Assembly (NCBI GenBank): GCA_973895155.1
Contig: OZ316894.1
Location: 7,154,234-7,218,233, forward strand
DNA: 64,000 bases
Direction: 5' to 3'
Source: Marsupella aquatica
Lineage: Eukaryota > Plantae > Marchantiophyta
This document shows, piece after piece, positions 38,101-62,992 of the stretch. The notes under the pieces are model-generated. The model searched no databases, was not told the DNA's origin, and saw only the letters and a list, made by a program, of their open reading frames with translations. The stretch's first letter is position 1. Every line of letters starts with the position of its first letter. The translations under genes and the position numbers were made by a program.

Positions 38101-38445
38101 TCCATAAATTGGAATCTCGGCTGTACTAGCCGAATCAGTTTCTCCCTTGGTGCCCATAGACTGTCCCCTTGCCGGCCTATTCGGTTTTGAATTGGTAGTA
38201 GGTTTTCCTTCCTGACTCGGCTCTGGATTCTCTCTGTGCATCTCATCCACCTCTTCCTCCTGAGGGTCAGGCCGCTGTGCTCTCCCGGCTTCTAATAGGG
38301 CCTCAATTTATTCTGCCCTTGTAATCGGCTTGTATGCCGATCCCTTGGTATTTAATTCCTTGCCGATGATCGATGGCGTTGTGGACCCTGTCGGCTCTGC
38401 CACAACGCCTGCAGAAAATCCATTGTCCCTGCTACTGCTCCCCAC
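35179..38445 (-). CDS. pol: Element A pol (RT-RNase H-integrase); one premature stop near 38309 upstream of RT
   Basis: WVSPIVIVPKK, DYRKLN, MPFGLCNAP, FIDD, RNase H 'VDVSG...NYSTTERE', HHCC, WGIDYIGP/SDRGTHF/NGLTE, WLGPF. Confidence 0.95.
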
Positions 38446-41416: not shown

Positions 41417-44400
41417 TGTGGTGCGTCCCATGGCTCCCTAAACCCAAGAAACCCCCCAGCTCAAGCCGATTCCCGTAGGTTTCGCGCTTGGTGAGGCCGT
41501 TTCCGCGGCTTAGCGGCATGGGACGCTGCTAACCTCCTCCTACTCTTACTATTAGCCTTTTACCCACATATACTAGACAGATCCTTCATCGGTCATGAGA
41601 TACGTAGCCGGCCTAATCTAGGCCTTCCCTTGTCTTCCTCTCCTTCTGGTTAGGTATGTTTGGATTCTGCCACCGGAATGATCCCCAATAGGCTTGGTTA
41701 AGCCGCTAAGACCTCTCTCAGCTCGACACATCCAACTCTCACTCCCTTGTTTACTTTCCTTCCTTCTGGTAGATGTGGGCACTCTTCACACAAGTTAATG
41801 CGACACACAAATAGCAAAATGACTCCTTCTGACTGAGTCATACCATGCACTTGCCATACAAATAGTACATCTCATACACAAGTTCTGCGAACTAAGCCGT
41901 GAGGCCAACTCTATTTAGCTCTTAGGCATGAGGAAACATGAATATACACAAGGTCACGGTATGACTAACCGAGAGCTTCTCTTACTACTTGATCCCATCC
42001 CGGCTGGTGCAACTAAAAACTTGCTAAAGAAGAGGCCCTGAGCTCCCTGCTGCCCAGGTACTTATCCTGGTAGTGGATCCGCCTAATTCTTTGCAGCGTA
42101 AGCCTAATCTACCTAACCGTAATCTACCTGCAGCCCGAAACTACCTATGTACAGCAAGGCAGGAGCACAAGTGTTGCTCCTACCAGTGGAACCGCAATCC
42201 CACTAAGCTAAGTGTCAGGGCCGCTCCTGGTCCTGATCCTAATCCTAAACTTGGAGATCAGCGCCCGCCCTGCCCACTCACGCCTCCTACCTCCACGTCC
42301 GCCTTTCCTAAAAGGAACGGCACCCTTGCACCGTCACGACACCGGTGGTGGATCCTCAATGGACGCCCCCAATGCTTCCTCCGCAACCACTGCCGTTGGT
42401 CCATCCTCTGACAGATTACCTGCCTCTGACCGAGTCAACTTTTCGGCATGACTGGGCCCACCCTCGGCTTCGGCATCGGCTCGGGAATCATTCTCGGCTA
42501 CGGCCTCAGCCTCGGCTTCAGCCACTGTCTCCCCGGCCTGCTCAAGAGGTGGATCTCGGATACCGGCCTCATTATTGAGTAGTCTGGCTTGGGCCGCGCC
42601 ATCCCCACCTTTGGTGATAGCGGAATCTATTGCCGTGCTCATGCCGGAGGTTGGTGTTGGGTCTACCTCCTTGGTCACCACGGCCAGTGGAGTCGTATTA
42701 CTCCTTGACCCTGAAGGTTTCCGCTTCTTCTTCTTTTCTGGTTCGGCAACTGGTCCCTTCCCCTTCCCACTTACTTCCGTCACTGGTGCAGGTGGCGCGG
42801 CTTGTTCTTCGGCCAGTACCACTCCTGGTAACTTGGTTGCCCCAATTGGAGTTGGGCCTGATGAAGACAAGCACTTAAATACTGCGGCTTGTTTCTTCAG
42901 CCGCTCTGTTTGGTTGTCGGCCCGTCGCTGTAGGTTCTCCATCTTCCTCGTGAGTTCCTCCAACTCCTCCTGGGTCTCATCCAGGTCCCTGCGCGCCTCC
43001 TCTAGTTCCTTCTAGGCTTCCTCCCGTTCCCTGTGGGCTTCCTCCAGTTCTTTCTTCAAGGTAGCCCTCTCCTCCCGTGTTGCTCTTAGCTCCTTGTCGA
43101 GCTCCGCTACGACCTTAGACTCCATGTTATTCATCTTGGCATAAGTCTGGTCGAGCTGGGCGTCCTTCTCCCGCAGGTCGGCCTTGAAGTTGGCCGTCAG
43201 GGACGCAAGCTCCTGCTGTAGCGCAATAATCCCTTGATAGGATTTCCCTAACTCGGCCTCCTTCTGCTCAAGGACTCCGCGGATTTTCTCGAGCTCCCCC
43301 TTCAATGCCCTCTCCCTTCTCTGAGTCTCCGCCGTGACCCGGTTGTTGACTGCTATATGGGCCTCTTCTGCGTTTCTCAGCTCCTTCTTCCATTTCTCCC
43401 TGTCCTTGATTGCGTCGGCCAATTCTCCCTGGGTCTGAGTCAGTTTATCCTTGATAATCTGATTATCAGCCTGCGCTGTGTCCAACTGCCCCTGTATGAT
43501 GTTCAGCTCATGCCGCTTAATCCTCAGTTCATCTTGGGCTTTCTTGGCCGCCTTTAGATCTTCAATCTCGGCTTCCATCCTCCTAAGCCGCCGGATGACC
43601 TCGTCCTTCTTGCTTCTCTCTAAAGCCACCGCTTCTTCTAATTGATTCTTCTCCAACTGCTCCCTATGGAAAAAGGGTCCTACCTCCAACTCCTCCCCAA
43701 AGATGCCGAGCGCAAGTTCCCCACACATCTCACCATACTCCATGGCTCTATTCTTAGCGTAGGTGGAGTAAGTAGAAGTGATCGGCATCGCCCATCGCGG
43801 CCTCTGCTCCCAAGCCGTCTTGCGGATCTCTTCAATCGTGGCTAGAGGTTTGCTTCCTTTTTTGGCTAGGCGCCTGATGTCCTCTGGCCAATCTCCTCCT
43901 GGCAAATCCTTTTCCCTGGCCAGGGCTGCCTTCTCTTCCTGCCTGATTCGCTCCTGAAATTCCTGCGCCGTCTGTTTTATGCCGTCAAAGCTCGGGGGAG
44001 CAACATCTGGTGGGGGAGACTCAGGGCTACTCTGCTGGTTGGGGTCCCCTCGTACTACCCTTGGAAGTGTGGGGATAAACCGGCCACAGGTCCTTACTCC
44101 TGGAACGTGATGGTCCGACCCATAGCCGGAGTTATCATGGCTGCAGTCCTCCACTGCCTCCTCTACTTCTTGGACTTCCGGCTTCTCCCTCTCTTCTTCG
44201 TCGGTAGGAGCTTCAGACAATTCTACCTCAGATTCAGAGCTTGAGACTCCCACGTACATTCGAACACCCGGCTTGGATTCTGGCCTGATTCTGCTGAGGT
44301 TGACCTCTGGGGCAGTGTCCTGCATTGTTGCCGTTGCCGTTGTCGTTGCCGATGCCGATCTCTTCTCTTTCTCCAGTAGTTTCAGCAGATTCTGCATGCC

Positions 44401-44808
44401 TAGTTGCTGCATCGGCAAGTCCTCCATCCTTGGCCTAAACACCTGCTCGATCGTAGGGCTAATAGGTGGTTGAGGCTTCTCTACTACCGGCCTCGGTGCT
44501 GGGGCTTCCTCGGGTGCCCTTACCTGCAGGGGAAGTACTGGGGCAAAGGTCTGACCTCTGGCATACCGGCACAACAGCGGCATGTGATAGCCAAGCCGCG
44601 ACACGCTCCCCATGCCGATTACCTGCTGCTCCTCCTTTAAGATCTTCTTCAATTGGTTGAGGAGGTACCCATTGTACGTAGTCCCGGCTTGGGTCTGGCC
44701 TCTCTGCCAGATAGACCTGTGCCTTGCCGATCTCTGCCCTCGGCAAGTTACAATGCATGGTCACCCGCAAGAAGTTGATCATCTCTCCTATGTGCAGGTT
44801 GGTGCAGG
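41417..44808 (-). repeat. Element A 5' LTR, left part, with a disrupted LTR-ORF copy (42334-44808)
   Basis: Near identical to 30568-33954; resumes at 58376 after element B. Confidence 0.93.
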
Positions 44809-47800
44809 TGTGGTGCGTCCCATGGCTCCCTAAACCCAAGAAACCCCCCAGCTCAAGCCGATTCCCGCAGGTTTCGTGCTTGGCGAGGCCGTTTCCGCGG
44901 CTTAGCGGCATGGGACGCTGCTAACCTTCTACTACTACTATTAATATTTTACACACATATACTGGATAGATCCTTCATCGGGTCATGAGATACGTAGCCG
45001 GCCTAATATAGGCCTTCCCCTGTCTTCCCCTCCGTCTTGTTAGGTATGTTTGGATTCCGCCGCCGGAATGATCCCCAATAGGCTTGGTTAAGCCGCTAAG
45101 ACCTCTCTCAGCTCGACACATCCAACTCTCACTCCCCTGCTTACTTTCCTTCCTTCTGTTGATGTGGGCACTCTTCACACAAGTTAATGCGACACACAAA
45201 TAGCAAAATGACTCATTCTGACTGAGTCATACCATGCACTTGCCATACAAACAGTACATCTCATACACAAGTTCTGCGAACTAAGCCGTGAGGCCAACTC
45301 TATTCAGCTCTTAGGCATGAGGAAACATGAATATACACGAGGGTCACTGTATGACTAACCGAGAGCTTCTCGTACTACTTGATCCCAGCCCGGCTGGTGC
45401 AAACTAAAAACTTGCTAAAGAAGAGGCCCTGAGCTCCCCGCTACCCAGGTACTTATCCTGGTAGTGGATCCGCCATTCTTTGCATCGTAAGCCTAATCTA
45501 CCTGACAGTAATCTACTTGCCCGAATCTACCTATGTACAGCAAGGCAGGAGCTCAAGTGTTGCCCCTACCAGTGGAACCGCAATCCCACTAAGCTAAGTG
45601 TCAGGGCCGCTCCTGGTCCTGATCCTAATCCTAAACTTGGAGATCCGTGCCCGCCCTGCCCACTCACGCCTCCTCCCTCCACGTCCGCCCTCCCTAAAAG
45701 GAACGGCGCCCTTGCACCGTCACGACACCGGTGGTGGATCCTCAATGGACGCCCCCAACACTTCCTCCTCAGCCACTGCCGTTGGCCCGCCTACTGACAG
45801 ATTACCTGCCCTTGACCGAGTCAACTCTCCATCGGCCTGACTGGGTCCACCTTCGGCTTCAGCCTTGACACCGGCCTCGGCAATACCCACGGCTTCGGCC
45901 TCAGCCACTCCCACGGCTTCGGCCTCCCCTTCCCCTAGGGTAGTTGGATCCTTAGCCGTGACCCTGTCTGGGGTCGGTGTTGGGTCTACCTCCTTGATCA
46001 CCACGGCCTGTGAAGTCGTATTACTCCTTGACCCTGAAGGTTTCCGCTTCTTCTTCGTTGGTGGCTCGGCAGCTGGTCCCTTCCCCTTCCCACTTACTTC
46101 CGGCACTGGTGCAGGTGGCGCGGCTTGTCCTTCGGCAATTACCACCCCTGGTAACTGGTTTGTCCCAACGGGAGATGGACCTGCTGCAGCTAAGCATTTA
46201 AATACTGCGGCTTGTTTCTTCAGCCGCTCTGTTTGGTTGTCGGCCCGCCGCTGTAGGTTCTCCATCTTCCTCGTGATTTCCTCCAACTCCTCTTGGGTTT
46301 CATCCAGGTCCTTACGTGCCCCCTCCAGCTCATTTTTGGCCTCCTCCTGCTCCCTGTGGGCTTCCTCCAATTCCTTCTTCAAGGTAGCCCTCTCCTCCTG
46401 GGTTGCTCTTAGCTCCTTGTCGAGCTCTGCAATGATGACAGACTCCATCTGGTTCATCTTGGCGTAAGTCTGTTCGAGCATCTCGTCCTTCTCCCTTAGG
46501 TCGGCCTTGAAGCTGGCCGTCAGGGACGCAAGCTCCTGCTGCAGCGCCATAATCCCTTGATAGGATTTCCCTAACTCGACCTCCTTCTGCTCAAGGGCTC
46601 CGCGGATTTTCTCGAGCTCCCCTTTCAACGCCCATTCCTTTCTTTGGGTCTCCGCCATGGCCCGACTGTTGGCTGTTATGTGGGCCTCCTCTGTATTCTT
46701 CAGCTCTTGCTTCCACTTCTCCCTCTCTTTGATCGTGTCGGCCAACTCTTCCTGCGTCTGAGTCAGTTTATCCTTAATATTCTGATTATCAGCCTGCGCG
46801 GTGTCCAACTGCCCCTGCATGATGTTCAGCTCATGTCGTTTAATCCGCAGTTCATCTTGGGCTTTCTTGGCCGCCCTTAGATCTTCAATCTCGGCTTCCA
46901 TCCTCCTAAGCCGCCGAATGACCTCGTCCTTCTTGCTTCTCTCTAAAGCCACCGCTTCTTCTAATTGGTGTTTCTCCAACTGCTCCCAATGGAAAAAGGG
47001 TCCTACCTCCAACTCCTCTCCAAAGATGCCGAGCGCAAGTTCCCCACACATCTCACCATACTCCATGGCTCTATTCTTAGCGTAGGTGGAGTAAGTAGAA
47101 GTGATCGGCATCGCCCATCGTGGCCTCTGCTCCCAAGCCGTCCTGCGGATCTCTTCAATCGTGGCTAGAGGTTTGCTTCCTTTTTCGGCTAGCCGCCTGA
47201 TGTCCTCCGGCCAATCTCCTCCTGGTAAATCCTTTTCCTTAGCCAGGGCGGCCTCTTCCTCCTGCTTGATTCGCTCCTGAAATTCCTGCACCGTCTGTTT
47301 TATGCCGTCGAAGCTCGGGGGAGCAACATCTGGTGGGGGAGACTCAGGGCTACTCTGCTGGTTGGGGTCCCCTCGCACTACCCTTGGAAGTGTGGGGACA
47401 AACCGGCCACAGGTCCTTACTCCTGGAACGTGATGGTCCGACCCATAGCCGGAATTATCATGGCTGCAGTCCTCCACTGCCTCCTCTACCTCTTGGACGT
47501 CCGGCTTCTCCCTCTCCTCTTCGTCGGTAGGAGCTTCAGGCAATTCTGCCTCAGATTCGGAGCTTGAGGTTCCCACGTACATTCGAACACCTGGCTTGGA
47601 TTCCGGCCTGATTCTCTCCTTGTCTCCAGCAAAGGGGTTTTCTCTTGTGAGCCAGTGTAGGCCTACCTCTGTAGTAGTGTCCTGCATTGTTGCCGTTGCC
47701 GTTGTTGTTGCCGATGCCGATTTCTTTTCTTTCTCCAGTAGTTTCAGCAGACTCTGCATGCCTGGTTGCTGCATCGGCAAGTCTTCCTTCCTGGGCCTAA

Positions 47801-49434
47801 ACACCTGCTCGATCGTAGGACTAACAGGTGGTTGAGGCTTCTCAGCCAACGGCCTCGGTGTTGGAGCTTCCTCGGGTGCCCTTACCTGCAGGGGAAGTAC
47901 CGGGGCAAAAGTCTTACCTCTGGCATACCGGCACAACAGCGGCATGTGATAGCCAAGCCGCGACACGCTCCCCATGCCGATTACCTGCTGCTCCTCCTTT
48001 AAGATCTTCTTCAATTGGTTGAGGAGGTACCCGTTGTAGTCCCGGCTTGGGTCTGGCCTTTCTGCCAGATAGACCTGTGCCTTGCCGATCTCTGCCCGCG
48101 GCAAGTTACAATGCATGGTCACCCGCAAGAAGTCGATCATCTCTCCTATGTGCGGGTTGGTGCAGGTGTTCCGGAAGAAGCCATTCTTCGTTGATGGCCC
48201 GGGGAACGACCGGAACTCCTTGTCAGGCAAGGTCTTCCTGGTATCAACTTTGGTCTTATTGCCTATCGGCAGGCCAAACACTTCGGCAATTACCTTGGGA
48301 GTAAGATAGAAATCCCTCCCATATATCCTCGTGCAATTGGTCTCGGGTTCCCATGACCCCACGAATTCTAATAGGTCTGACTCCGGTACCTCCGGCTTCA
48401 GCCATGGTAATCTTACAAAGGCCTCCAAGCCGGATCCGGCCATGAAGCCTTGGTACTTCTTGGTCTGCATGGCCGTAAAGCATGCATCCTCCTCCCGTGC
48501 AAAATGTAGTTGCACCTCCACCGGTAGGGTTGCCGCCCAGCCCTTCCAGGTGTCATCCCTGGTTGGAATGGCCTTGATGGGATCGACCTCCTCCTCTTCG
48601 GCTTCTCCCTGCCTCCTGCTCTGCTGCTCGGCTGGCCTCTTTGGTGCCGCCGACCTCGTTCTTTTTGCCGGGGTGGCTTCATCATTGATGGCTCCCTTCC
48701 TCTTCATCTCTGCTGCCGTGGAGGTTTCTCCTAGCACCGTTGCCTGGGTCCACCTTTCCGTGCTACCCTTTAATTCCCAGTGTATGTCGTTGCAGTTCTT
48801 GATGGCCTCTCGGATGCCGACGACGCTGTCTTTGCAAAACAGAAGATCGTCGAGTTGATTGGAAGTAGGCGTCCACAGGAACTCGTCCTTGATGAGTTTG
48901 CCTCCTAAGAAAGCCGTCTTCTGCAGCTCCCACAATCGAGCGAGCTCCTGCCGTTCTCGAGCTGCCCTTTCTGACTCCTCGTCCTCGTAAGTCTTGATGT
49001 ACTCAGTTGCCCGTTCGAATAGGCATCCCCAGAAATGTGCCGCTTGATTGACGTTGCTCATACCCTCCTTAGGTCGATCGTCGGTATCTACTCTCTCCCC
49101 GAGTGCTTGCCTAAGCAGCTGACAGTAGTTGGCCTCCCGTAGTCGTCTGCCTAGTTCGTGCTCGCAAATGAGCCACCATCTCCTGCAAGCGCTCCTTACC
49201 CCTCTCCTCTGCCGGTCCTTCTTCCCGTTGATCCTTCCTAGCCGCCGACGCTTAACGCGCCCTAACCCTAATCGGGTTTTCACCCTTAGCCTTACCTCCG
49301 GCCTCGGCCCGGGTTCCATGGTTGCCCCTAATTGTTTATATTTTCCTTGTTTTGTCCCTATACTAAGGTGTTCCTAGGGTGCCTTCCTGCTTTACCCACT
49401 TAACCGGCCGAGTGATTCCTGTCTAGGCATCACA
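44809..49434 (-). repeat. Element B 3' LTR, 4626 bp
   Basis: PPT at 49435-49447; TSD at the left edge; matches 55660-58370 apart from a deletion. Confidence 0.95.
45720..49319 (-). CDS. Intact 1199-aa extra ORF wholly inside the LTR: basic N-terminus, plant-mobile-domain-like motif, acidic/Pro linker, long coiled coil, NLS-like KKKRK
   Basis: Open frame with ACCATGG start 115 nt inside the LTR; 'LLEFVGSWEPETNCTRIYGRDFYLTPKVIAEVFGLPIG' resembles the PMD W-x-PET...T-x-x-x-V...GLPI motif; E/K/L heptad region ~46200-46990. Confidence 0.9.
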   Translation of the reverse strand: MEPGPRPEVRLRVKTRLGLGRVKRRRLGRINGKKDRQRRGVRSACRRWWLICEHELGRRLREANYCQLLRQALGERVDTDDRPKEGMSNVNQAAHFWGCLFERATEYIKTYEDEESERAARERQELARLWELQKTAFLGGKLIKDEFLWTPTSNQLDDLLFCKDSVVGIREAIKNCNDIHWELKGSTERWTQATVLGETSTAAEMKRKGAINDEATPAKRTRSAAPKRPAEQQSRRQGEAEEEEVDPIKAIPTRDDTWKGWAATLPVEVQLHFAREEDACFTAMQTKKYQGFMAGSGLEAFVRLPWLKPEVPESDLLEFVGSWEPETNCTRIYGRDFYLTPKVIAEVFGLPIGNKTKVDTRKTLPDKEFRSFPGPSTKNGFFRNTCTNPHIGEMIDFLRVTMHCNLPRAEIGKAQVYLAERPDPSRDYNGYLLNQLKKILKEEQQVIGMGSVSRLGYHMPLLCRYARGKTFAPVLPLQVRAPEEAPTPRPLAEKPQPPVSPTIEQVFRPRKEDLPMQQPGMQSLLKLLEKEKKSASATTTATATMQDTTTEVGLHWLTRENPFAGDKERIRPESKPGVRMYVGTSSSESEAELPEAPTDEEEREKPDVQEVEEAVEDCSHDNSGYGSDHHVPGVRTCGRFVPTLPRVVRGDPNQQSSPESPPPDVAPPSFDGIKQTVQEFQERIKQEEEAALAKEKDLPGGDWPEDIRRLAEKGSKPLATIEEIRRTAWEQRPRWAMPITSTYSTYAKNRAMEYGEMCGELALGIFGEELEVGPFFHWEQLEKHQLEEAVALERSKKDEVIRRLRRMEAEIEDLRAAKKAQDELRIKRHELNIMQGQLDTAQADNQNIKDKLTQTQEELADTIKEREKWKQELKNTEEAHITANSRAMAETQRKEWALKGELEKIRGALEQKEVELGKSYQGIMALQQELASLTASFKADLREKDEMLEQTYAKMNQMESVIIAELDKELRATQEERATLKKELEEAHREQEEAKNELEGARKDLDETQEELEEITRKMENLQRRADNQTERLKKQAAVFKCLAAAGPSPVGTNQLPGVVIAEGQAAPPAPVPEVSGKGKGPAAEPPTKKKRKPSGSRSNTTSQAVVIKEVDPTPTPDRVTAKDPTTLGEGEAEAVGVAEAEAVGIAEAGVKAEAEGGPSQADGELTRSRAGNLSVGGPTAVAEEEVLGASIEDPPPVS

Positions 49435-52400
49435 TAGCTCCCCACTTAATTGTGAAGCGTCCTCGCGAACAACTTCATCTTCGTCCATATAGTATTTCTT
49501 GAGGCGGTCATAATGGATGCGAACTGGATATACCTCTCCCGTAATGTTGGCCAATTGTACGGAGCCATTGGGGAACATCATGGTTACTCTAAAGGGTCCT
49601 AACCAGCGAGTGTAAAGCTTTCCTGGAAACCTACTATACCTACTGTCATAAAGTAGCACAAGATCACCGGTATGAATACTAACTACTTTTAACTTTTTAT
49701 CATACTGCTGCTTCATGATATTCTGTCTATATTCTACTCTCTCGGCTGAAATCATTCTCGCTTCCTCTAAAGCTTCTAACCTATATTCTCGCTCCTTTAG
49801 GCTCTCCTCCGCTGAGGCTCTTTCCTCAATTATAACTTGAAATGTCGGTATCTCAAGTTGCATGGGTACTAGGGCTTCTTGTCCAAAGGTTAAGAAGAAG
49901 GGTGTATGACCGGTAGTGGATTTATAGGCAAGATTGTAAGCAAAAATAGCAGCAAACCATTTATCATCCCAATCGAGTTTGTTCTGAGCTACTGTCTTGT
50001 TCAATATCTTTCCTATGATTCCGTTTGCTCGTTCTGTCAACCCGTTTGCCTTTGGATGGTAGGGAGTAGTAGGCCTATGTTTAACTAAATACTGCTCATT
50101 TAAACGACTAATTATATCATTCAAAAAATGGGTTCCTCTATCACTAACTAATTCTAGGGGTGCTCCATACCTGGTGAAGATCTGCTCATACATGAATCTA
50201 GCCGTAGTAATTGCATCATCCTTCGTTGTTGGTCTGGCCTCTACCCATTTAGTTGCATAATCCGTAGCCAGGATTATGTACTTGTTCCGTCGAGGGTGGG
50301 TCAGTGGTTTCAGAGGTCCAATGTAATCAATACCCCACTTCTCGAATGGTGCCAGAGGTAGAATAGGGTGCAGTGGATGCCTGGTGGACGCCCTTGGTCC
50401 TCCCGCTCGTTGACAAGGATCGCATTGTCTGATAAACTGATAGACATCTTTGTGCAAGGTGGGCCACCAGTAACCGGCATTTAATATCTTCTTAGACGTG
50501 GTTACTGGGGCAAAATGTCCTCCGGCCTCCTCTCCATGCATGGCCCGTAGGACTCGTTTTACCTCTCTCTTTTCCAAACATCTTTGAATCGTGCCGTTGA
50601 TTCCATGCTTGTGCAGTATGCCTTTAATGCACTGATACTGTCTGACCTTCTGCACAAAGACTGCGGCTTGCTCTCGGCTTAATCCTGGCTGTAATCTGGA
50701 AGTGCTGAGAAATTGTAAAATCTCAGGGTACCATGTACCAGCTATTTCCACAACGAATAGCTCCTCGTCGGGGAATCGATCATCGATGCAATCCGTGGCA
50801 GGTTTACCTGTGATCCTTGAAAAGAAGTCGGCATTGGCATGTAACTTTCCCGGCTTGATCCTTAGCTCATAGTCAAACTCCTGTAATAGCAAAATCCATC
50901 TTGCTACTCTGCCTGTAAGGTCCGGCTTATTGACTAGGTACTTCAAACTTTCATGATCAGTATGAAAGATTACCTTGTACCCTAGTAAATAATGCCTAAA
51001 CTTTTTACAAGAATAAATGACTCCTAATGCTTCTCTTTCCGTGGTAGAGTAGTTCCGTTCGGCATCGGCAAGCTGACGGCTTGCGAAGTATATGGGATGG
51101 TCCCTTCCTTTCTCATCCAACTGACTTAGTACTGAGCCAATACAGAAGCCCGAGACATCTACAAAAACATGAAAATCTTTGTTCCAGTCCGGTGCTATCA
51201 TGACTGGGGCCTCTACTAACATCTGCTTCAATTCTACCACCGCTGTGACTCGTTCGGGTGTGGGTTCGAAGTCTGCTCCTGCCTTGAGCATATTGGTTAA
51301 TGGTAAAGCCAGCTTGGCAAAATCCTTGATGAACCGGCGATAGTAACCAATGCATCCCAAGAAGGATCTTACATCCTTTATGTTCTTAGGTTGCATGATA
51401 TCTAGCCATACTGCTAGCTTACCTTTGTCAATCTCAATGCCCTTCCTTGATACCTTGTGGCCTAGTAGCACCCCCTCGGTTACTGCAAAAAAACATTTAT
51501 CTGGGTGTAACTTGAGACCCACCTCTCTACATCTCATGAAGGTTTTCCTGAGGTATTTAGCATGTTTCGATGCCTTCCCGAATACTGCAAAGTCATCAAT
51601 GAAGATTTCCATGAACTTTCTCAAGTAATCATGAAAAATGTTCACCATTAATCGTTGGAACATAGCTGGTGCGTTGCAGAGTCCAAACGGCATACGATTG
51701 AAGACATAGATCCCCCATTCCGTGATGAAGGCCGTCTTGATTTGGTCTTCCTGCCGAATCCTGATTTGGTTATAACCAGAGTATCCATCCATGAATGAAT
51801 ATAGTTCATGACTGGCTACCATGTCTAGTACCATATCAGTAAACGGTAAAGGAAAATGGTCTTTTAATGTTGCTTCATTCAGCTTCCTGTAATCCTGACA
51901 AACCCGGATCTTGGGTTTACCATCGGGTCCAGCTTTCTTGGGAACTATCACAATTGGAGACACCCAGTCTGAATGCAGGACTGGAGTGATGAATCCAGCT
52001 TCCACTAGTTTGTCGATTTCTGTTTTGACCAGCAGGGAATACTTCGGGTTCATCCTTCGAATTGGTTGTCGAAATGATTTGGCTCCTAACATGAGATCAA
52101 TTCGATGTTCCCCTAGTGTTGGATCTACTCCCTTTTGATCTTGGTGACTCCATGCAAACACATCCTGAAATTCAATCAATAAATCACTGATCTCTTTCTC
52201 GAGCTCAGGTGCTAGGTTTCTCCCTAAGTTCAGTTCTCTTCCCTCTCCTAAGTCGAGCTTCCGATATTGCCGTGCTTGGATCATATTAATCTGCTTCTTC
52301 AAATTCGGGTCCAGTTCGACTTCCAGTCTCTCTAATCTCATACCTCCATAAACTGGGATCTCGGCTGGACTAGCCGAGTCGGTCCCTTCCTTGGTGTCCA

Positions 52401-52689
52401 TAGATTGTCCCCTTACCGGTCTATTCGGTTTTGAATTAGTGGTCGGCTCTCCTTCCTGCCTTGGCTCTAGATCGTGTCTGTCCATCTCATCCACCTCTTG
52501 CTCCTGAGAGTTAGGCCGCTGTGCTCTCTCGGCTTCTAATAGGGCCTCAATTTGTTCTGCCCTCGTAATCGGCTTGTATGCCGATCCCTTGGTATTTAAT
52601 TCCTTGCCGATGATCGATGGCGTTGTGGACCCCGTCGGCTCTGCCACAACGCCTACAGAAAATCCACTGTCCCTGCTACTGCTCCCCAC
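49423..52689 (-). CDS. pol: Element B pol (RT-RNase H-integrase), intact frame, ending 12 nt inside the 3' LTR
   Basis: Same motifs as element A; no stops over 1088 codons; frame opens just upstream of a slippery site. Confidence 0.96.
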   Translation of the reverse strand: MGSSSRDSGFSVGVVAEPTGSTTPSIIGKELNTKGSAYKPITRAEQIEALLEAERAQRPNSQEQEVDEMDRHDLEPRQEGEPTTNSKPNRPVRGQSMDTKEGTDSASPAEIPVYGGMRLERLEVELDPNLKKQINMIQARQYRKLDLGEGRELNLGRNLAPELEKEISDLLIEFQDVFAWSHQDQKGVDPTLGEHRIDLMLGAKSFRQPIRRMNPKYSLLVKTEIDKLVEAGFITPVLHSDWVSPIVIVPKKAGPDGKPKIRVCQDYRKLNEATLKDHFPLPFTDMVLDMVASHELYSFMDGYSGYNQIRIRQEDQIKTAFITEWGIYVFNRMPFGLCNAPAMFQRLMVNIFHDYLRKFMEIFIDDFAVFGKASKHAKYLRKTFMRCREVGLKLHPDKCFFAVTEGVLLGHKVSRKGIEIDKGKLAVWLDIMQPKNIKDVRSFLGCIGYYRRFIKDFAKLALPLTNMLKAGADFEPTPERVTAVVELKQMLVEAPVMIAPDWNKDFHVFVDVSGFCIGSVLSQLDEKGRDHPIYFASRQLADAERNYSTTEREALGVIYSCKKFRHYLLGYKVIFHTDHESLKYLVNKPDLTGRVARWILLLQEFDYELRIKPGKLHANADFFSRITGKPATDCIDDRFPDEELFVVEIAGTWYPEILQFLSTSRLQPGLSREQAAVFVQKVRQYQCIKGILHKHGINGTIQRCLEKREVKRVLRAMHGEEAGGHFAPVTTSKKILNAGYWWPTLHKDVYQFIRQCDPCQRAGGPRASTRHPLHPILPLAPFEKWGIDYIGPLKPLTHPRRNKYIILATDYATKWVEARPTTKDDAITTARFMYEQIFTRYGAPLELVSDRGTHFLNDIISRLNEQYLVKHRPTTPYHPKANGLTERANGIIGKILNKTVAQNKLDWDDKWFAAIFAYNLAYKSTTGHTPFFLTFGQEALVPMQLEIPTFQVIIEERASAEESLKEREYRLEALEEARMISAERVEYRQNIMKQQYDKKLKVVSIHTGDLVLLYDSRYSRFPGKLYTRWLGPFRVTMMFPNGSVQLANITGEVYPVRIHYDRLKKYYMDEDEVVREDASQLSGELCDA
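52606..52665 (-). promoter_or_regulatory. Predicted programmed -1 ribosomal frameshift signal; the equivalent in A is at 38362-38421
   Basis: G GAU UUU in the PR frame, 5-nt spacer, 10-bp stem GGCGUUGUGG/CCACAACGCC, loop GCCGA pairing with downstream UCGGC; pol is -1 relative to gag-PR in both elements. Confidence 0.8.
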
Positions 52690-55590
52690 TTAGCCGTTTC
52701 ATCCAATTGGTCTACATCCTTTACTTCCTCCGGAATTGCAGCTAAAAAGGTGGATTCTATTGTAAAGCAGTCCTCGACCTCTTCGTCTTCTTCTTCCAAG
52801 TCACCTTCCATTGGTTCTTGCCATAATTCGCTGGGGGGTACCTCTGGTCCAAAGACACCTTCTTCGGTTAGGTTAGTGAGGCATTCTAACCAACGTACTT
52901 CATCGGCTGACTCCAGTCCACTGTCGTACCCATCTACTTCCCTTATGCTTTTCCTACGGTCATCCTTAGTGTCCCAGGATACCGTGATAGAGGGGGTCCC
53001 GAAAGTGAACTGCTTTTTACCCCAATCTTCTATTACCTCGGCTAGGTACAGCCATGGCCTACCAATCAATAGCTGGAATGACGTAGGATTTACCGGCTTC
53101 ATTACTACATAGTTAATGCTAAAGAAGATACCTCCTATCTCTGTCTTGATGCCGGTTAACACTCCCGTCGGAATGACCTGATATCCATTGGCCATGTTCA
53201 ACACTCTTCCAGTCATCTCCGGTGTTAGACCCCACCCTTTTGCTGTTGAATCAATCATAATACATACCCCTGATCCTCCATCGATGGGTACCCGTAGTAA
53301 TAATTCTCCTTGAATCATTAATGGTAATGCTGGGGCTCCTTGATCTTCTTCTATCATTAGTACGTTGGATCTGGTTGCTACCTTGGGTAATCTCGGCTTG
53401 CCGAGAATAGCCTTCCTTAATTGCTTCCGGAAGTACGGGCTATTTTTCAATAGTTGACCTACTGTTGCCGAGACTCTAGATTCTAGTACATCTTTAGCCA
53501 GGTCATAGGGAACAATCGGCTTCTCTTCTGGTGGTGTTTCCGTCTTGGATTCGGCCAGTTTTGCTATGCTAGTCTCCACAGCTGTTGGGTCTTCCGAAGC
53601 AAACAATGCTTTTGCTCGTTTTACATCCTTGGCAATGGCTTCGGTATTCTCCAGGGTTTCTAATTCTCTTAGTTGTTCCTTAACACTAGCCGTAACAGAG
53701 GGGTAGAACAACTTAGGATGATCTCGATTGAAGTCGCTATCTTGTGAAGGATTGGTTTCACTGGTGGGCTCATGGCTTACCTGTATTGCCGGAGCCCTCC
53801 CTTCTCCTTCTGTTGATGTTGACGAAGAGTCGATCCTTTCCTCCGTAACCTTCCCTTTATTTTTGGCCAGCCCATCCCACCTTTCCTTCCTTCTGGTAGA
53901 TCGAGTAGAGACCCGGTAGCAATCATGATCTAAATCCTCCTCTGAGAAGGTTGATAGGGCTTCGGCCTCATCATCAGATGGTACGAACTCTGCCTCGGCA
54001 TCCTCTTGCCATCCTAGTTCGATGTGGTTGATTTGAACTCCTCCGGGGGTAGTACCTGGCGGTAAGATCTTGATCGGCAAAAGCTTATGATTTGCGGCCA
54101 GGCCTGCCAACCAAGTAGGACATTGCCCTAGCATATGACCTTCCTGTCGGCATCCCATACATAGCTGAGCTGGTTGTCCATCACCCTGTTTGCGTGCATT
54201 CGGGCATTCTCTAGCAAAATGGCCAGGTTGACCACAATTATAGCACGCCGCAAATCTTTGCACATTCGGCCTAGGAGGTACTGACGGGTTCTGAATAATC
54301 CGAGGATACATCTCTCCTGGATTGTTCCTTAACCCTGACCACAGAGATGCAGGTCTGTTGGATAGGTCTCGTGCTCCAGTCTCACTGATGCCGAAAACAC
54401 TATCAGCGGCATCTCCCAAAAAGTACTCTACTTCTCCGTGACATGGTCTGATCTCGGCCACATGCCGAACATGATTAGTATTAAGCTTAGGACACGCATC
54501 TTTATGGTGTCCGGTTTTATAACATAAGGCACACCATACAGAGCTATCCTCCTGTACTACCTTCTTCTTTGGTTTTACCTCTGCAATGATAGCCTTAAGT
54601 TGCTCGGTAAGGGCTACGATGTTATCTGGTGGCTTAGCCTCCATCTTGACTTTCGTCTTCCCTCTCCTTCTGCCCTTCCTTTTCCTAGTTTTCTTCTTCT
54701 TCAGAACTAGAAGATGACTCACTCTTGCTACTTCCACTATCCGAGCTTGACTTATCACTTCTAGACTTCTTGGAATGTTTCTTCTTCTTATCTTTTTTCT
54801 TATGGGGTGATCCCTCCTCTGATGAGGAACTCTCAGACTTAAGCTGTTTCTTCCGGCTTGTGATATCTGCATTAATGTATAATTGAATATCCTTAATTGC
54901 TTCGGCTAAAGTCTCCGGGTTCTCCTTCCTAATTGCAAAACTCATCTTCTGTGGCAAAGCATTCACCAACCATTGAAGTTGCATACCTTCAGATGCATTG
55001 GTCTTTGTACGTCTTACCAGTTTCTGAAAGCGTTGCAAGAACTTCCTGAAGGATTTGTTCTCCTTGAACCGAAGTTGTCCCAACTTCAGCACTGCTAGTT
55101 CTGAAGTTCCAATGGGTCGAAACTCCTTAACAAAGAGTGTTTTGAAGATATCCTAGATGGCTTGATCTTCCACATCTAATGCTCTGTACCAAGGCCTAGC
55201 CTCACCCTTGAACAGGCCGGGAAGAATCTGCATCTTGATGGCCGATTCTCCATTTGCTGCAGCGGTTCCCTCGAAATCATCCAACCATTCGTCCGGATCC
55301 TCATCTCCTCTCCCATGAAATGCCTTGTAATGTATGCGCAACCGCTGGCTCAATCTGGTCCCTGGCCTCTCGTCTGGCCGTGCCTCTGGTTCCCCCATGT
55401 CGGTTGGAGACTCACTTCTCCTTACCGACTCTTCTTCTGGTATGTCTTCTTCGACGCCACTTCCAGTTTCGGAGCTACCAGCTCTTTCTGCCCCTCTCAG
55501 TCGCTGTGTATCATGCCACCCGGCGAGCTGCTGCAGTCGAGCTCTCTCCCATCGAATCACTCTTTCTTCCCTCGGCATAAGGTCAGTCAT
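52653..55590 (-). pseudogene. gag: Element B gag-protease (three CCHC knuckles); one TGG>TAG stop at 55153 and a 1-nt frameshift near 54690
   Basis: CALCYKTGHHKDAC, CYNCGQPGHFAREC, CMGCRQEGHMLGQC; IDGGS protease motif; lesions defined by comparison with A. Confidence 0.93.
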
Positions 55591-55637
55591 TACCTACGCT
55601 TCCGTTCTAACTTCATATCTCACGGCTTAAGAAATGC

Positions 55638-55655
55638 CCCCTCCATCTAGCGCCA
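55638..55655 (-). promoter_or_regulatory. Element B primer-binding site, probably tRNA-Asn
   Basis: TGGCGCTAGATGGAGGGG, identical to A. Confidence 0.8.
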
Positions 55656-55659
55656 AAAA

Positions 55660-58370
55660 TGTGGTGCGTCCCATGGCTCCCTAAACCCAAGAAACCCCCC
55701 AGCTCAAGCCGATTCCCGCAGGTTTCGTGCTTGGCGAGGCCGTTTCCGCGGCTTAGCGGCATGGGACGCTGCTAACCTTCTACTACTACTATTAATATTT
55801 TACACACATATACTGGATAGATCCTTCATCGGGTCATGAGATACGTAGCCGGCCTAATATAGGCCTTCCCCTGTCTTCCCCTCCGTCTTGTTAGGTATGT
55901 TTGGATTCCGCCGCCGGAATGATCCCCAATAGGCTTGGTTAAGCCGCTAAGACCTCTCTCAGCTCGACACATCCAACTCTCACTCCCCTGCTTACTTTCC
56001 TTCCTTCTGTTGATGTGGGCACTCTTCACACAAGTTAATGCGACACACAAATAGCAAAATGACTCATTCTGACTGAGTCATACCATGCACTTGCCATACA
56101 AACAGTACATCTCATACACAAGTTCTGCGAACTAAGCCGTGAGGCCAACTCTATTCAGCTCTTAGGCATGAGGAAACATGAATATACACAAGGGTCACTG
56201 TATGACTAACCGAGAGCTTCTCGTACTACTTGATCCCAGCCCGGCTGGTGCAAACTAAAAACTTGCTAAAGAAGAGGCCCTGAGCTCCCCGCTGCCCAGG
56301 TACTTATCCTGGTAGTGGATCCGCCATTCTTTGCATCGTAAGCCTAATCTACCTGACAGTAATCTACTTGCCCGAATCTACCTATGTACAGCAAGGCAGG
56401 AGCTCAAGTGTTGCCCCTACCAGTGGAACCGCAATCCCACTAAGCTAAGTGTCAGGGCCGCTCCTGGTCCTGATCCTAATCCTAAACTTGGAGATCCGTG
56501 CCCGCCCTACCCACTCACGCCTCCTCCCTCCACGTCCGCCCTCCCTAAAAGGAACGGCGCCCTTGCACCGTCACGACACCGGTGGTGGATCCTCAATGGA
56601 CGCCCCCAACACTTCCTCCTCAGCCACTGCCGTTGGCCCGCCTACTGACAGATTACCTGCCCTTGACCGAGTCAACTCTCCATCGGCCTGACTGGGTCCA
56701 CCTTCGGCTTCAGCCTTGACACCGGCCTCGGCAATACCCACGGCTTCGGCCTCAGCCACTCCCACGGCTTCGGCTTCAGCCACTCCCTCGGCTTCGGCCT
56801 CCCCTTCCCCTAGGGTAGTTGGATCCTTAGCCGTGACCCTGTCTGGGGTCGGTGCTGGGTCTACCGGCACAACAGCGGCATGTGATAGCCAAGCCGCGAC
56901 ACGCTCCCCATGCCGATTACCTGCTGCTCCTCCTTTAAGATCTTCTTCAATTGGTTGAGGAGGTACCCGTTGTAGTCCCGGCTTGGGTCTGGCCTTTCTG
57001 CCAGATAGACCTGTGCCTTGCCGATCTCTGCCCGCGGCAAGTTACAATGCATGGTCACCCGCAAGAAGTCGATCATCTCTCCTATGTGCGGGTTGGTGCA
57101 GGTGTTCCGGAAGAAGCCATTCTTCGTTGATGGCCCGGGGAACGACCGGAACTCCTTGTCAGGCAAGGTCTTCCTGGTATCAACTTTGGTCTTATTGCCT
57201 ATCGGCAGGCCAAACACTTCGGCAATTACCTTGGGAGTAAGATAGAAATCCCTCCCATATATCCTCGTGCAATTGGTCTCGGGTTCCCATGACCCCACGA
57301 ATTCTAATAGGTCTGACTCCGGTACCTCCGGCTTCAGCCATGGTAATCTTACAAAGGCCTCCAAGCCGGATCCGGCCATGAAGCCTTGGTACTTCTTGGT
57401 CTGCATGGCCGTAAAGCATGCATCCTCCTCCCGTGCAAAATGTAGTTGCACCTCCACCGGTAGGGTTGCCGCCCAGCCCTTCCAGGTGTCATCCCTGGTT
57501 GGAATGGCCTTGATGGGATCGACCTCCTCCTCTTCGGCTTCTCCCTGCCTCCTGCTCTGCTGCTCGGCTGGCCTCTTTGGTGCCGCCGACCTCGTTCTTT
57601 TTGCCGGGGTGGCTTCATCGTTGATGGCTCCCTTCCTCTTCATCTCTGCTGCCGTGGAGGTTTCTCCTAGCACCGTTGCCTGGGTCCACCTTTCCGTGCT
57701 ACCCTTTAATTCCCAGTGTATGTCGTTGCAGTTCTTGATGGCCTCTCGGATGCCGACGACGCTATCTTTGCAAAACAGAAGATCGTCGAGTTGATTGGAA
57801 GTAGGCGTCCACAGGAACTCGTCCTTGATGAGTTTGCCTCCTAAGAAAGCTGTATTCTGCAGCTCCCACAATCGAGCGAGCTCCTGCCGTTCTCGAGCTG
57901 CCCTTTCTGACTCCTCATCCTCGTAAGTCTTGATGTACTCAGTTGCCCGTTCGAACAGGCATCCCCAGAAATGTGCCGCTTGATTGACGTTGCTCATACC
58001 CTCCTTAGGTCGATCGTCGGTATCTACTCTCTCCCCGAGTGCTTGCCTAAGCAGCTGACAGTAGTTGGCCTCCCGTAGTCGTCTGCCTAGTTCGTGCTCG
58101 CAAATGAGCCACCATCTCCTGCAAGCGCTCCTTACCCCTCTCCTCTGCCGGTCCTTCTTCCCGTTGATCCTTCCTAGCCGCCGACGCTTAACGCGCCCTA
58201 ACCCTAATCGGGTTTTCACCCTTAGCCTTACCTCCGGCCTCGGCCCGGGTTCCATGGTTGCCCCTAATTGTTTATATTTTCCTTGTTTTGTCCCTATACT
58301 AAGGTGTTCCTAGGGTGCCTTCCTGCTTTACCCACTTAACCGGCCGAGTGATTCCTGTCTAGGCATCACA
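55660..58370 (-). repeat. Element B 5' LTR, 2711 bp, with a ~1939-bp internal deletion truncating the LTR ORF (56861-58255)
   Basis: Junction at ~56865 on TACC microhomology joins the equivalents of ~45990 and ~47930; one extra 24-bp unit near 56770. Confidence 0.95.
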
Positions 58371-59067: not shown

Positions 59068-59960
59068 TCAAAAAGTGTCTGGGATTTCTCTATACAGACC
59101 TGAATATTCCCGTCCTACAAATGATCTAGCAAGTGAGATGACAAGTGCATTGTCAAGTTCCACCTCAGGACGTAAGCTACATATACGGTGCTTCACAGCC
59201 CAAGGAATCTCATTGCTATTGAGGTCCAACACACTATGCCTATACTGTGACTTCCAAATTTTTGCTACACATCTCTTACTAAGTTGATCATAAGTAATCT
59301 CATTTTTTGCCTTGTCTCTCTTAATGTGCAATAGAGACCACTTTGGAGAGTTTAGGAGAAGATAACAATGAATGTCACTTGCATGTGACAGTTTCTCAAG
59401 ACATGGCCAAAGAATTGTTAGAAGAAAATTGTCTCCACGATTGGCATGCGTGTAGGGCACTGGAAATAGTCCGGTCATGTCTGGGTTGGCAAATGCCTTC
59501 AAGGGGGAGTCATCCACAAGGAGTGTGTTGGTTTCATCATATAAATTTCCAAATGCACTCCATACCACCCGAAAATCCTTCAATAGCACATTTGCCTTTC
59601 CATTTGTAATGTCACGCCTTTGAATGCCTGTGTCAAAGGCTTCCACCTGTGTGAATACAAACTTCAGTTTCAACCGCTCCTCAATTGTGAACATCATGTT
59701 CAACATTTTCACTGTTCGCGGCATCCCAGCACATGTCCAAATTGCAACGTCAAACCGGTCAAAACCAACTTTAGAAACTCATGGAGCCCTGGCCTCTCTG
59801 TATACATGCGACTAGTTCCATTTGATCTATCCCAATGCACTCCACTTGAGGTGACAATATTCCTGGATGTGCCCTTGCTTTGGAATTCAATAGAATCCCA
59901 AAGTATTTTATTAAGGTCCAAAATCAGCAACTTCCGCTTGACGGGACCAGGTCTCGATTC
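59068..59960 (-). pseudogene. FCP1/NIF-like HAD phosphatase domain, frameshifted near 59760
   Basis: 'KRKLLILDLNKIL', 'ERPGLHEFL', 'VAIWTC', 'LLKDFRVVW', 'YDETNTLLVDDSPLKAFANP'. Confidence 0.85.
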
Positions 59961-62606
59961 TGCAAGTGCACCAAACACCATTCTCAGAGAAAAGATCAAA
60001 AGTGAACTTTGGATTAGGATTGTCTCAGTCCAAAAATACAAGACAGTGGCTTAAAGAAAATTAACCTACATACCATTTTTAGAACCCTCACAATGTGTAG
60101 ACGGATATGGAGACTTTAATTGGTGAGCGCATTCTGTGAGACCGAGAAGTATTTTAGATTGATATGAATAAATACAAAGTCAAAGGCTGAATTTCATTCC
60201 GAAATAAGAGATCCGTATTCATCAATAATCATGTCAGCACCAAGCTCCTGTTGGATTTCAAAATTGACATCTGAAGTACTTTGTTCTACCCAATAAGGTG
60301 AAGTCCAAACAGGAGTTATCAACCCCAATTCTCCACTCTTATACTCCTCCTTATTGAGAATTGAAGGAGCAGCATCCAATGATATTTCTTGGCCTCGATT
60401 TGGCCCACTTTTCCACACGTAACATCATGCGTCGCATTCCAATGACCTCCATCCAATTGATCCAACTCTATTTCCTTTCTTTTTTGAGAGTGGAAGGACA
60501 ATAGGACTCCCCGAGTGTGAATGAACGAACACCAATTTGTCATCAGAAGCTGAAAAGAGTGTGTCAGGACAAGTTGAAGCACCTGCCTGGTTGTCAACAG
60601 CCGTTGATGCATTTCCTCCTGGATTGATCGGAATGTCAGGCAATCCGCCAGTCTCCCCCTCGATCTCCCCCCGAGTCAATTCTTTAGTTTCAGCTTCATT
60701 TGAATCTCCAAGCCTCGTTGCGCCTTCATTGATCAGATTGGTTGAAGAAAGATGATCAAACGTATCAACCCTTGCTCCTTCCAGTTGCTCCATCTGTCCT
60801 CCCGGCGTTGTTGGATTGGGATCATCCTTGTCCAAGTTATCATCAACTTGAACTTCATTGGGCCCCGGAGGGATGTCATCTAAACCAGATGAACGGTTTG
60901 GTGCAAGTCCAATATCATCATCTACATCGTAAGGCTCACCTTGACCAACACGGTCATCCAAATTCTTGACATATGCCTCCTTTGATGCCTCTACGCCTTC
61001 AGCCACTTTGTCAGCAACATCTTCAGACTCAGAACCATCGGATTCAACAGCGACAGCTACAGCCGCAACAGTGGTAGCCCATTGTCAAGAATTTTCAGCA
61101 AGTGATTCACAATGAGCTTTAAGTGAGGGAACTCTCTCGCAAAGGTAGGAAGCAAAAGCTTCCACAAAATGCCTCTCGGAGTGAGAGTCACAATAAACAA
61201 AGCATTCCCTATCGCAAAAAAATGATGTCTTCATGACTTGGCCACCGGAGAAAAAATCTAGAACCAAATCTCCCGGTTCTGACAAGGATTCAATAATCCT
61301 TTGGATCATCCGCGTGGGTTTGGCATGAGGATTAACTCACCCTCCGCGACTGCCAGCTGTCTCAAATCGAGGGGCCATATTCATAATCTTGACGGCCTCT
61401 TCCGGGTCCAAAACCACTTTTAGGTCGTCATTTTGTGTCCCCTCATCTGATTCCTTAGCCTTCCCCTTTCCCTTGTCGATCTTGCATACTTCGTAATCAA
61501 CATCCTTTGCAGTATACAAGAATTTTGGCTTTGGATACTTGGGCTTGAAAACTTCATTCCAATTGATGTCTTCATCTCGAGAAATCCCCGCAAAGATAAC
61601 TTCTTCAATCCCCCCACCCCAACATGAGTCATGAGGGTGCGGTTGATCATCTCGAGAATAACTCCCATACTCAATGTGAATGGTCAAAGCTTTCTCTTGT
61701 CCCAGTTTACGAAGGGCACCATGGACATTCAATGCAAGTTGTCCAGGATGAACTGTTATCGTCACAACAATCGTGGGATTTTGTGGAAGCTCCACAATGT
61801 ATTCAAAGAGAACAAGAATCTCTGCTTCAGTCCATTGTTTTTGCGGAAGCCGGCTAAAATCAACAATGGCAAGAGGGCAGGTCGGAGGAGCTTCTTGCAA
61901 TGACTCTGGATCAATGGTCTTCATGAGATTGTCGCTAAAAAATGTAGCCCATGGTAGGGTCCGAGAATGTGATCCTCTGCCAAATTTCTGGCAGTATATA
62001 TCATCTAGGCGGAATGCCAATACCGTCGGCAAGATTGCGCTCTCCCGTGTATGATTTGGTTTTAAAAGGTTGGCAAGATAGACCTCGCCAGCGGCTCTTC
62101 AACACCTGCTGAACTCTGAATCAATTGCTAGCGTAGGAGGAACCTCCACTACTTTCCCCCAATTAGTATTTGTCGGGAAATTCACCGCATCCTTGGTGCA
62201 ATAGTAGTCTTCAATAAGGGACTTCAGTTTCCGCACGATCTTCACATCTTTGGCCAACTCCTCTATAGATGGCATGTCTGATTTATTAGAGGCATCTTTC
62301 TCACCATCAAAACAACCATCAACTCACCATCAAAACAACGAAACATGGCAACAGTAATTGCTTTTTCAGACTTCTCATTTCCTTCTACCCCAGCTCCATC
62401 GGGAAGTTTCCCATCCAACCACAATTGGCATACCAAACTCCATAACTCAAAAAGAGCATCGTCCGCAAACAGTAACCAGTAAACATTTTGACAATCTTTC
62501 CTTCCCATGGTCATTCTTGCAAGAGCCAACCAATCCTACAATTGCAAAGGAAAGTCTGTTAGTTCTCCATAACTCAATTGTTTGATAGCACTCAGGTGCG
62601 GATTGA

Positions 62607-62992
62607 GACCATCCCAGTCCAACACAGAACTAGACAGTATCAGTGGAAATATTCTATTGAATGTGCATGATTTAGTTTGGACTGGGACCATCCCAGTCCA
62701 GAACAAAACTAGACAGTATCAGTGGAAAAATAATCTATTGAATGTGTATGAATCCATTTGGACTGGGACCATCCAGTCCAACGCAAAACTAGGCGATATC
62801 AGTGGAAATATTCTACTGAATGTGCATGAATCCATTTGGATTGGGACCATCCCAGTCCAACACAAAACTAGACGATATCAATGGACAAAGATTCTACTGA
62901 ATGTGCATGAATCCATTTGGACTGGGACCATCCCAGTCCAACGCAAAACTAGGCCATATCAGTGGAAATATTCTACTGAATGTGCATGAATC
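62607..62992. repeat. ~80-bp tandem repeat x5 inside an intron
   Basis: GACCATCCCAGTCC anchors at 62607, 62686, 62767, 62845, 62926. Confidence 0.92.

Follow-up and report, generated by a model that had tools for sequence, protein, structure and literature searches.

Two sister copies of an LTR retrotransposon, A and B, which lie nested in the window (by which we mean the whole 64,000-nucleotide stretch of DNA that was analysed), carry pol in a frame that is offset by -1 from that of gag and the protease (PR), raising the question of how RT, RNase H (RH) and integrase (IN) come to be translated from them. Copy B shows the hallmarks of a Ty3/Gypsy element, including TG…CA LTR ends, a target duplication and the domain order gag-PR-RT-RH-IN, and is inserted within the 5′ LTR of A with a 5-bp target duplication (span 30565-58586). 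The LTRs of B run from 49434 to 44809 (3′) and from 58370 to 55660 (5′, with 1.9 kb deleted), and the 5′ LTR of A is without its first kilobase. The two copies are 94.7% (about 95%) identical to one another; the identity between paired LTRs (99.6-99.7% in B, 99.1% in A) is high, indicating that both are young. Domain searches of the upstream ORF of B returned zinc knuckles and a protease-region domain under the Pfam cut-off. Pfam and PDB sequence searches with the protease yielded sub-threshold matches only, and this domain is therefore assigned as a retropepsin by its predicted fold (pLDDT 91), which matches the retroviral protease-like domain of Ddi1 (E 1e-6, TM 0.72). Gag is broken in both window copies: gag-PR of B contains a stop at 55155 and, near 54693, an offset of 1 nt, and A has gag lesions together with a stop in its pol frame at 38310-38308.

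Inspection of the PR-RT junction revealed a compact candidate recoding signal (Table 1). A sequence-only reading of this DNA had claimed that gag-PR and pol are offset by -1 in A and in B, and that the overlap holds G GAU UUU, 5 nt, a perfect 10-bp stem and a loop GCCGA complementary to UCGGC 8 nt past that stem; the frames confirm the offset, and every element of the layout was found in both copies. The heptamer fits the X XXY YYZ rule (in which G GA is permitted), is in phase with the upstream frame and is the only one of its kind within the gag-PR/pol overlap, and the downstream pol ORF, in the -1 frame, is open across the slip site. As predicted, the pseudoknot would comprise a loop 1 of 4 nt, an interstem loop of 6 nt, a loop 3 of 8 nt and a stem 2 of five Watson-Crick pairs.

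Table 1. Coordinates of the candidate signal, of its host element B and of related features in the window.
Feature	Position	Strand	Remarks
Slippery heptamer G GAU UUU, B	52659..52665	-	In phase with gag-PR frame (…V D F L stop)
Spacer, 5 nt	52654..52658	-	Length kept; 3/5 places variable
Stem 1, 5′ arm	52644..52653	-	Pairs with 52628-52619, ten Watson-Crick pairs
Stem 1, 3′ arm	52619..52628	-	No listed variant
Stem 2, 5′ strand, GCCGA (predicted)	52635..52639	-	In 15-nt loop of stem 1
Stem 2, 3′ strand, UCGGC (predicted)	52606..52610	-	8 nt past stem 1 (loop 3)
Counterpart of the signal in A	38362..38421	-	Identical in 137/141 aligned columns
gag-PR stop, A-type copies	52596..52598	-	22 codons from start of slip codons
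Second hairpin repeating both stem-2 words	52568..52585	-	Stem not fully kept; loop variants; 3′ arm altered in two loose ends
Candidate 152-nt intron	52653..52804	-	Donor 52804, acceptor AG 52654-52653; computed
gag-PR region of B (capsid, zinc knuckles, protease; active site 53285)	52653..55590	-	Domain and fold evidence
pol frame of B (linker, RT, RNase H, integrase)	49423..52689	-	Open 1088 codons, first ATG 52485
Whole element B, Ty3/Gypsy LTR retrotransposon	44809..58370	-	LTRs, TG...CA ends, target duplication
LTR ORF	45720-49373, within 3′ LTR 44809-49434	-	Copies 31483-34611; partial 42334-44760, 56861-58309

Such an arrangement is rarely reproduced by chance. Stem 1 is the sole perfect 10-bp stem (loop 3-40 nt) in 6.2 kb of B, its window is the most stable among 1236 windows of 50 nt, and an in-phase heptamer accompanied by a perfect stem of at least 8 bp turned up in 0.02% of 20,000 shuffles; folding z-scores over 121 nt were -4.2 and -4.6. 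A 5-bp match between the loop and downstream sequence arose in 1.9% of shuffles. ViennaRNA draws a 3-bp inner helix in place of stem 2, a helix that is disrupted at 52630 in 11-68% of family depth; its being broken at this position in the family favours stem 2 over the inner helix. Comparison with Rfam gave no real family match for the signal, with three chance matches under the cut-offs. Downstream, a second hairpin repeats both words of stem 2, so that the pseudoknot strands have alternative partners, and a structural switch between the two arrangements is possible.

The sequence-only reading had also described the signal as conserved in both elements. It is indeed the same in A and B, but at 94.7% identity the two copies are too alike to serve as two witnesses, and contigs from the wider family weigh more. 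Seven public runs, none of them recorded as RNA, contain part of the stretch, and family copies were sampled as contigs of six (X1-X6) of ten listed runs, whose depths are not copy numbers; contig assembly drops rare variants, and the copies are related to one another. A wide survey took in 692 contigs of four runs over 52350-52950 at a 3% threshold, with 40 of its 96 variant rows listed, and a narrow survey took in 337 contigs of four runs (two studies; 57% of X4) over 52570-52720 at a 1% threshold, 107 of these contigs being less than 90% alike. A majority of copies with gag and pol in one frame, named in the sequence-only reading as an outcome that would count against it, is not what these contigs contain: no net frame-changing indel or joint at the junction is listed among the 692 + 337 contigs. 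The sole gaps among the variants listed for the 692 contigs (52350-52950) are three single-base ones at 52712-52716 that sum to three bases, and in the narrow survey one base is gained and another lost, both in the same three contigs, for a net of zero. No in-frame gag-pol copy appears among the contigs of either survey, from which rare variants are dropped. Four features qualify as traits of the family: the -1 offset, heptamer, spacer and stem 1.

The distribution of variation across the signal is uneven. Among the 25 variant rows at 1% or above in 52570-52720, none falls in the heptamer in the four runs (0/7 places), as compared to 10/15 places in the flank upstream of it; variable places number 3/5 in the spacer, 1/20 in stem 1, 0/4 in loop 1, 2/10 in stem 2, 2/6 in the interstem loop and 2/8 in loop 3, the loops together having 4/18. 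Taken over all positions, 3/37 constrained places vary as against 7/23 unpaired ones (p 0.035), and for pol-frame third positions the counts are 1/12 and 5/8 (p 0.018), p values that treat related copies as independent places and hence serve as a guide only. Both variants in stem 2, at 52635 (A-U to G-U) and at 52609 (to G-U), retain pairing; they are one-sided changes, the only ones seen, in contigs too short to link partners. In stem 1, a variant at 52650, present at 1-2% of depth, would alone make a mismatch; a change of its partner at 52622 occurs in a loose end of two contigs, and the two changes may lie in the same copy. In loose ends read by hand, positions 52622 and 52619 are each changed singly, with stem-1 pairing kept. 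Diverged contigs, placed by hand, have 4/8 or 5/7 of their loop 3 places changed with the adjoining arms intact, and the 3′ strand of stem 2 is retained in a contig whose loop 3 differs at 4/8 places. Diverged loose ends, likewise placed by hand, keep the heptamer and the 5-nt spacer while the flank is altered, in one case with a 3-nt offset upstream.

The family contigs also bear on a stop that the sequence-only reading had noted in B two codons after the slip site. The stop is present, but it stems from a change at 52655 that is not part of the signal: A's base at this position accounts for a depth of 103,167.5 out of 103,278 in X1 and for the entire depth in X2, X3 and X6, with 99% in X4 and 90% in X5, and since the other copies carry A's base, the early stop is private to B. 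The gag-PR frame normally reads on across the structure as far as the stop at 52598-52596. Because the early stop is confined to B, we rejected the idea that a nearby stop belongs to the signal in the manner of pea enation mosaic virus. Codon-level variation was tallied on both sides of the slip site. The frame whose third positions hold the variants changes from gag-PR upstream (19/41 places) to pol downstream (10/17 places); the upstream excess alone is not significant (p 0.10-0.19), and the downstream excess (p 0.027) is partly due to structure.

Programmed -1 frameshifting, as the sequence-only reading proposed, is the explanation best supported by these sequences, in which variation avoids the heptamer and both stems. 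We assign a probability of roughly 0.7 to the site being a programmed -1 frameshift signal that would yield Gag-PR plus a minor Gag-PR-RT-RH-IN product. Under this model, the majority of ribosomes would translate Gag-PR and terminate some 20 codons past the slip site, and a minority would pause when the stem arrives at the entry channel and the P and A sites are occupied by GAU and UUU; the tRNAs on these codons would then shift back one base, and the pol frame would be read to give Gag-PR-RT-RH-IN. In this way the signal would fix the ratio of RT, RNase H and integrase to Gag and protease, with protease produced at the level of Gag, as in Rous sarcoma virus (RSV). We lean slightly towards an H-type pseudoknot as the predicted stimulator, the alternative being the hairpin alone. 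The loop complement that the sequence-only reading had drawn as a pseudoknot is feasible, but it is less sure than the hairpin because of its 6-nt interstem element and because the changes in stem 2 are only wobble-compatible, none of them two-sided. The 5-nt spacer is at the short end of the typical range, stem 1 at 10 bp falls short of the 11 bp of an IBV-type long-stem pseudoknot, and the invariant A at 52654 (unpaired, and a pol third position) is unaccounted for by the frameshift model.

The strongest competing account, which we nonetheless consider unlikely, is an Ogre-like partial splicing, in which a minority of transcripts would lose a 152-nt intron so that gag-PR is joined in frame to pol, and in which a stem beginning on the acceptor's G would hold splicing inefficient. 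That Ogre elements bridge the same PR-RT boundary by splicing had been stated in the sequence-only reading and is borne out by the available part of PMC6317226; what that reading missed is that the slip site doubles as a plausible 3′ splice site. Removal of the 152 nt restores the frame; given the base that the family carries at 52655, the heptamer together with the spacer forms a U-rich 10-nt tract followed by CAG/G, an acceptor that ranks second by pyrimidine count of the 27 CAG/G sites in A, and the listed spacer variants are pyrimidine-rich with the AG retained, one contig excepted. The donor is among the two best in-phase donors of the ORF, with 6/8 matches to the consensus. Against this, frame-restoring GT-YAG pairs number 109 in the linker, so that finding one is no surprise; purines make up 64% and U 22% of the candidate intron, which contains no stop, four other YAG lie in the 30 nt preceding the acceptor, and P0263, a diverged relative, retains the peptide that the intron encodes (47% identity, E 3e-21). 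Moreover, the silent G (52665) and U (52662) of the heptamer are invariant while C/U swaps are free in the spacer, no intron-less DNA contig is among those listed, and stem 2 is left unexplained. The frameshift and splice routes may both exist, and the bases of the signal may also act as a weak splice acceptor.

Selection on Pol weighs on the remaining alternatives. Between A and B, pol has a dN/dS of 0.16 (dS 0.15, 1079 codons), compared to values of 1.25 and 1.95 for the two other frames, which places Pol under purifying selection; as the two copies share the offset, Pol was needed while the offset was in place. The A-B comparison gives no codon-level support within the linker, where the stretch from PR to 52806 has 7 non-synonymous but no synonymous codons and that from the slip site to the first ATG has 6 non-synonymous and 2 synonymous ones. 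The purifying selection, together with the lack of any in-frame copy among the contigs and the placement of the strongest stem of the internal region 5 nt past the sole heptamer in the overlap, largely refutes the idea that the offset is an old disabling mutation in a non-autonomous family borrowing Pol from an in-frame helper, with heptamer and stem there by chance; the broken gag of both window copies and the single-frame layout of relatives speak for such an origin, which we judge the least probable of all. Scarcely more probable is that Pol is made as a separate protein from its own start, on a subgenomic RNA or by internal initiation, the stem serving in packaging or another RNA role. The ATG at 52485 lies upstream of RT with a purine at -3 and a G at +4, and comparing A with B gives no sign of purifying selection from the slip site up to this codon; yet the pol frame of B is open for 58 codons before it, none of the 19 variants there makes a stop, those variants prefer pol third positions (the partly structural 10/17, p 0.027), and the exact heptamer would go unexplained. 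A carries a stop before this ATG, but A is broken elsewhere too.

Among named proteins, those closest to the A/B family belong to the liverworts Calypogeia fissa and Riccia sorocarpa, which makes a liverwort the probable host. P0004, at 72% identity in RT-RH, has Gag, protease and RT in a single product. In a quick tree of RT-RH, from which 41 of 123 proteins were omitted for covering less than 80% of the query, A and B group first with C. fissa P0013 and P0015 (support 89) and next with P0004 (100), within a wider clade (97) whose other 37 rows have PR in the same product in 30 cases and start after PR in 7. An overlap of 67 residues, at 82%, links C. fissa P0235 to P0013, and the pair spans PR to RT, both being gene-model products in which an intron in the model is possible. 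Among metagenome loci with both domains, the offset is 0 in 11 of 16, and the remaining five have gaps of 254-1337 nt with stops and no overlapping frames. Because relatives have PR and RT in one frame, the offset looks derived and is explained most simply as a gain in the A/B family; read from the tree, the signal would have arisen within the PR-RT linker of a single-frame ancestor. A diverged 106-residue Logan protein (P0263; three contigs) matches the linker at 45-47% and ends five residues or fewer from the slip-equivalent place, a hint that the offset may be older than the contigs reveal.

Other searches for relatives of the signal were less productive. One metagenome scan (37 loci) reached protease identities of at most ~40-48% and contained no locus with a frameshift signal; a G GAU UUU in L002 was set aside, as a stop follows immediately in the -1 frame, and L008, offset by -1 without overlap, looks decayed. 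In four distant elements of the scan (L017, L029, L034 and L036), the protease frame closes 0.9-1.3 kb before the RT frame opens, and the DNA in between is rich in stops, a gap that by analogy appears Ogre- or Tat-like. Scans of IMG/VR by protease, alignment, RT and DNA motif returned no relative, and the likeness of the pre-slip peptide to C. fissa P0015 (E 3.5) is not significant.

The exact heptamer G GAU UUU is also the slip site of the dianthovirus RCNMV. In wheat-germ extract, ribosomes shift by -1 on this heptamer in the context of pea enation mosaic virus 2 (PMC4737148), and G_GA slip sites are named for umbraviruses and dianthoviruses in PMC5009743. The heptamer of pea enation mosaic virus 2 and the dianthoviruses is the same as that of the A/B family; the viruses, however, rely on a nearby stop and on a bulged hairpin whose partner lies far away, whereas here the predicted fold is a local one of two stems and the nearby stop is confined to B. 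Excerpts of the same review give spacers of 5-9 nt as typical and report that a 7-nt loop between the pseudoknot stems works in Visna-Maedi virus, as compared to the 6-nt interstem loop seen here. For IBV, stem 1 needs 11 bp and 8 nt is the minimum for spanning a stem 1 of that length (PMC7618472, available part); loop 3 here matches this minimum at 8 nt, with a stem 1 of 10 bp. The likeness to the alpharetrovirus gag-pro/pol arrangement drawn in the sequence-only reading holds, with PR lying within Gag and a single proposed -1 shift: in RSV, protease is part of Gag (PMC12789967), and ~5% Gag-Pol results from a single -1 shift where gag ends, with a pseudoknot (PMC5009743). The present elements differ from RSV in being plant Ty3/Gypsy elements without env, in having a different heptamer and in placing the shift in the middle of a 200-residue linker; because relatives have one ORF, the likeness would be convergent. 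We consider it slightly better than an even bet that the full combination applies, namely a pseudoknot-driven -1 shift between protease and RT, derived from a single-frame ancestor, with an RSV-like layout and a plant-virus heptamer.

The lineage table of REXdb separates GAG-PROT from RT only by a spacer or stop, the spacer being an intron or stop in Ogre and a single stop marking Retand, neither listed with overlapping frames; overlapping ORFs occur in it only between GAG and PROT, in Tcn1, Selgy and SIRE (PMC6317226). These three share two overlapping frames with the A/B family, but at GAG/PROT, and a -1 overlap between PR and RT is absent from the table, which records prevailing layouts only and leaves room for minority cases (PMC6317226). 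A 2003 survey found plant overlaps solely in the +1 frame, as told in the accessible part of a 2016 review (PMC5009743), and splicing is named as the worked case for plant elements in the available portions of PMC5580714, PMC3735527 and PMC12786077. The parts available of PMC11963269, PMC10508981 and PMC12885004 make no mention of such a signal, and a full-text literature search, with most subscription papers outside its scope, found no report in the text it reached of a -1 signal in a plant retrotransposon. The proposed mechanism is a known one, in a place and lineage for which the literature searched seems to hold no record of it.

By the features compared, the element is neither Ogre nor Phygy. 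The additional RNase H of Ogre/Tat elements is absent, with one RNase H-like domain only (E 0.01), a trait that some liverwort Tat clades also lack (PMC10508981, in part), as is a non-coding spacer or single stop between PROT and RT, the frames here overlapping; the 4-bp NCGN target duplication of Phygy is likewise absent, the duplication being 5 bp. Two Athila features, a 5-bp target duplication and the lack of an extra RNase H, are present, and A and B cluster with liverwort and unnamed proteins apart from flowering-plant matches in a tree without labelled Athila references, so that Athila membership is not proven.

If the frameshift reading is true, the signal would be the first of its kind in a plant retrotransposon and a third solution at the PR-RT boundary beside the Ogre intron and the Retand stop. 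How plant retrotransposons make more Gag than Pol is partly understood, the worked cases being splicing (EVADE, BARE1, Ogre) and most lineages having one ORF; a conserved -1 signal between PR and RT would add frameshifting as a route, by way of a 60-nt element. The single-frame sister families would show how a recoding signal can originate inside a polyprotein linker, and the case bears on the repeated splitting of the PR-RT boundary in non-chromovirus Gypsy elements. Gene callers split such copies in two and would count them dead.

Several further features of the locus were noted. The LTRs, at ~4.6 kb, each carry a sense ORF of up to 1217 codons, one half of which is a long coiled coil, and the first 458 residues match no Pfam family at E 0.5; a large ORF within an LTR is unusual. 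The pol frame extends 12 nt into the 3′ LTR in both copies (49423-49434 and 35179-35190, minus strand), and the purine tract preceding the 3′ LTR is short and interrupted. A PBS-like stretch lies 4 nt past the 5′ LTR, at 55659-55638 and 41413-41392 (both minus strand), and looks similar to the 3′ end of plant tRNA-Asn; the primer sites of Athila elements are for tRNA-Asp or tRNA-Asn. Outside the nested pair, an ORF at 59068-59778 (minus strand) matches a NIF-type phosphatase (Pfam E 2e-6) and is accompanied by more ORF pieces up to 62098, a region that may represent a further mobile element or else a host gene. Repeat arrays, either tandem or interspersed, occupy 17586-19386, 2291-2625 and 62600-62992.
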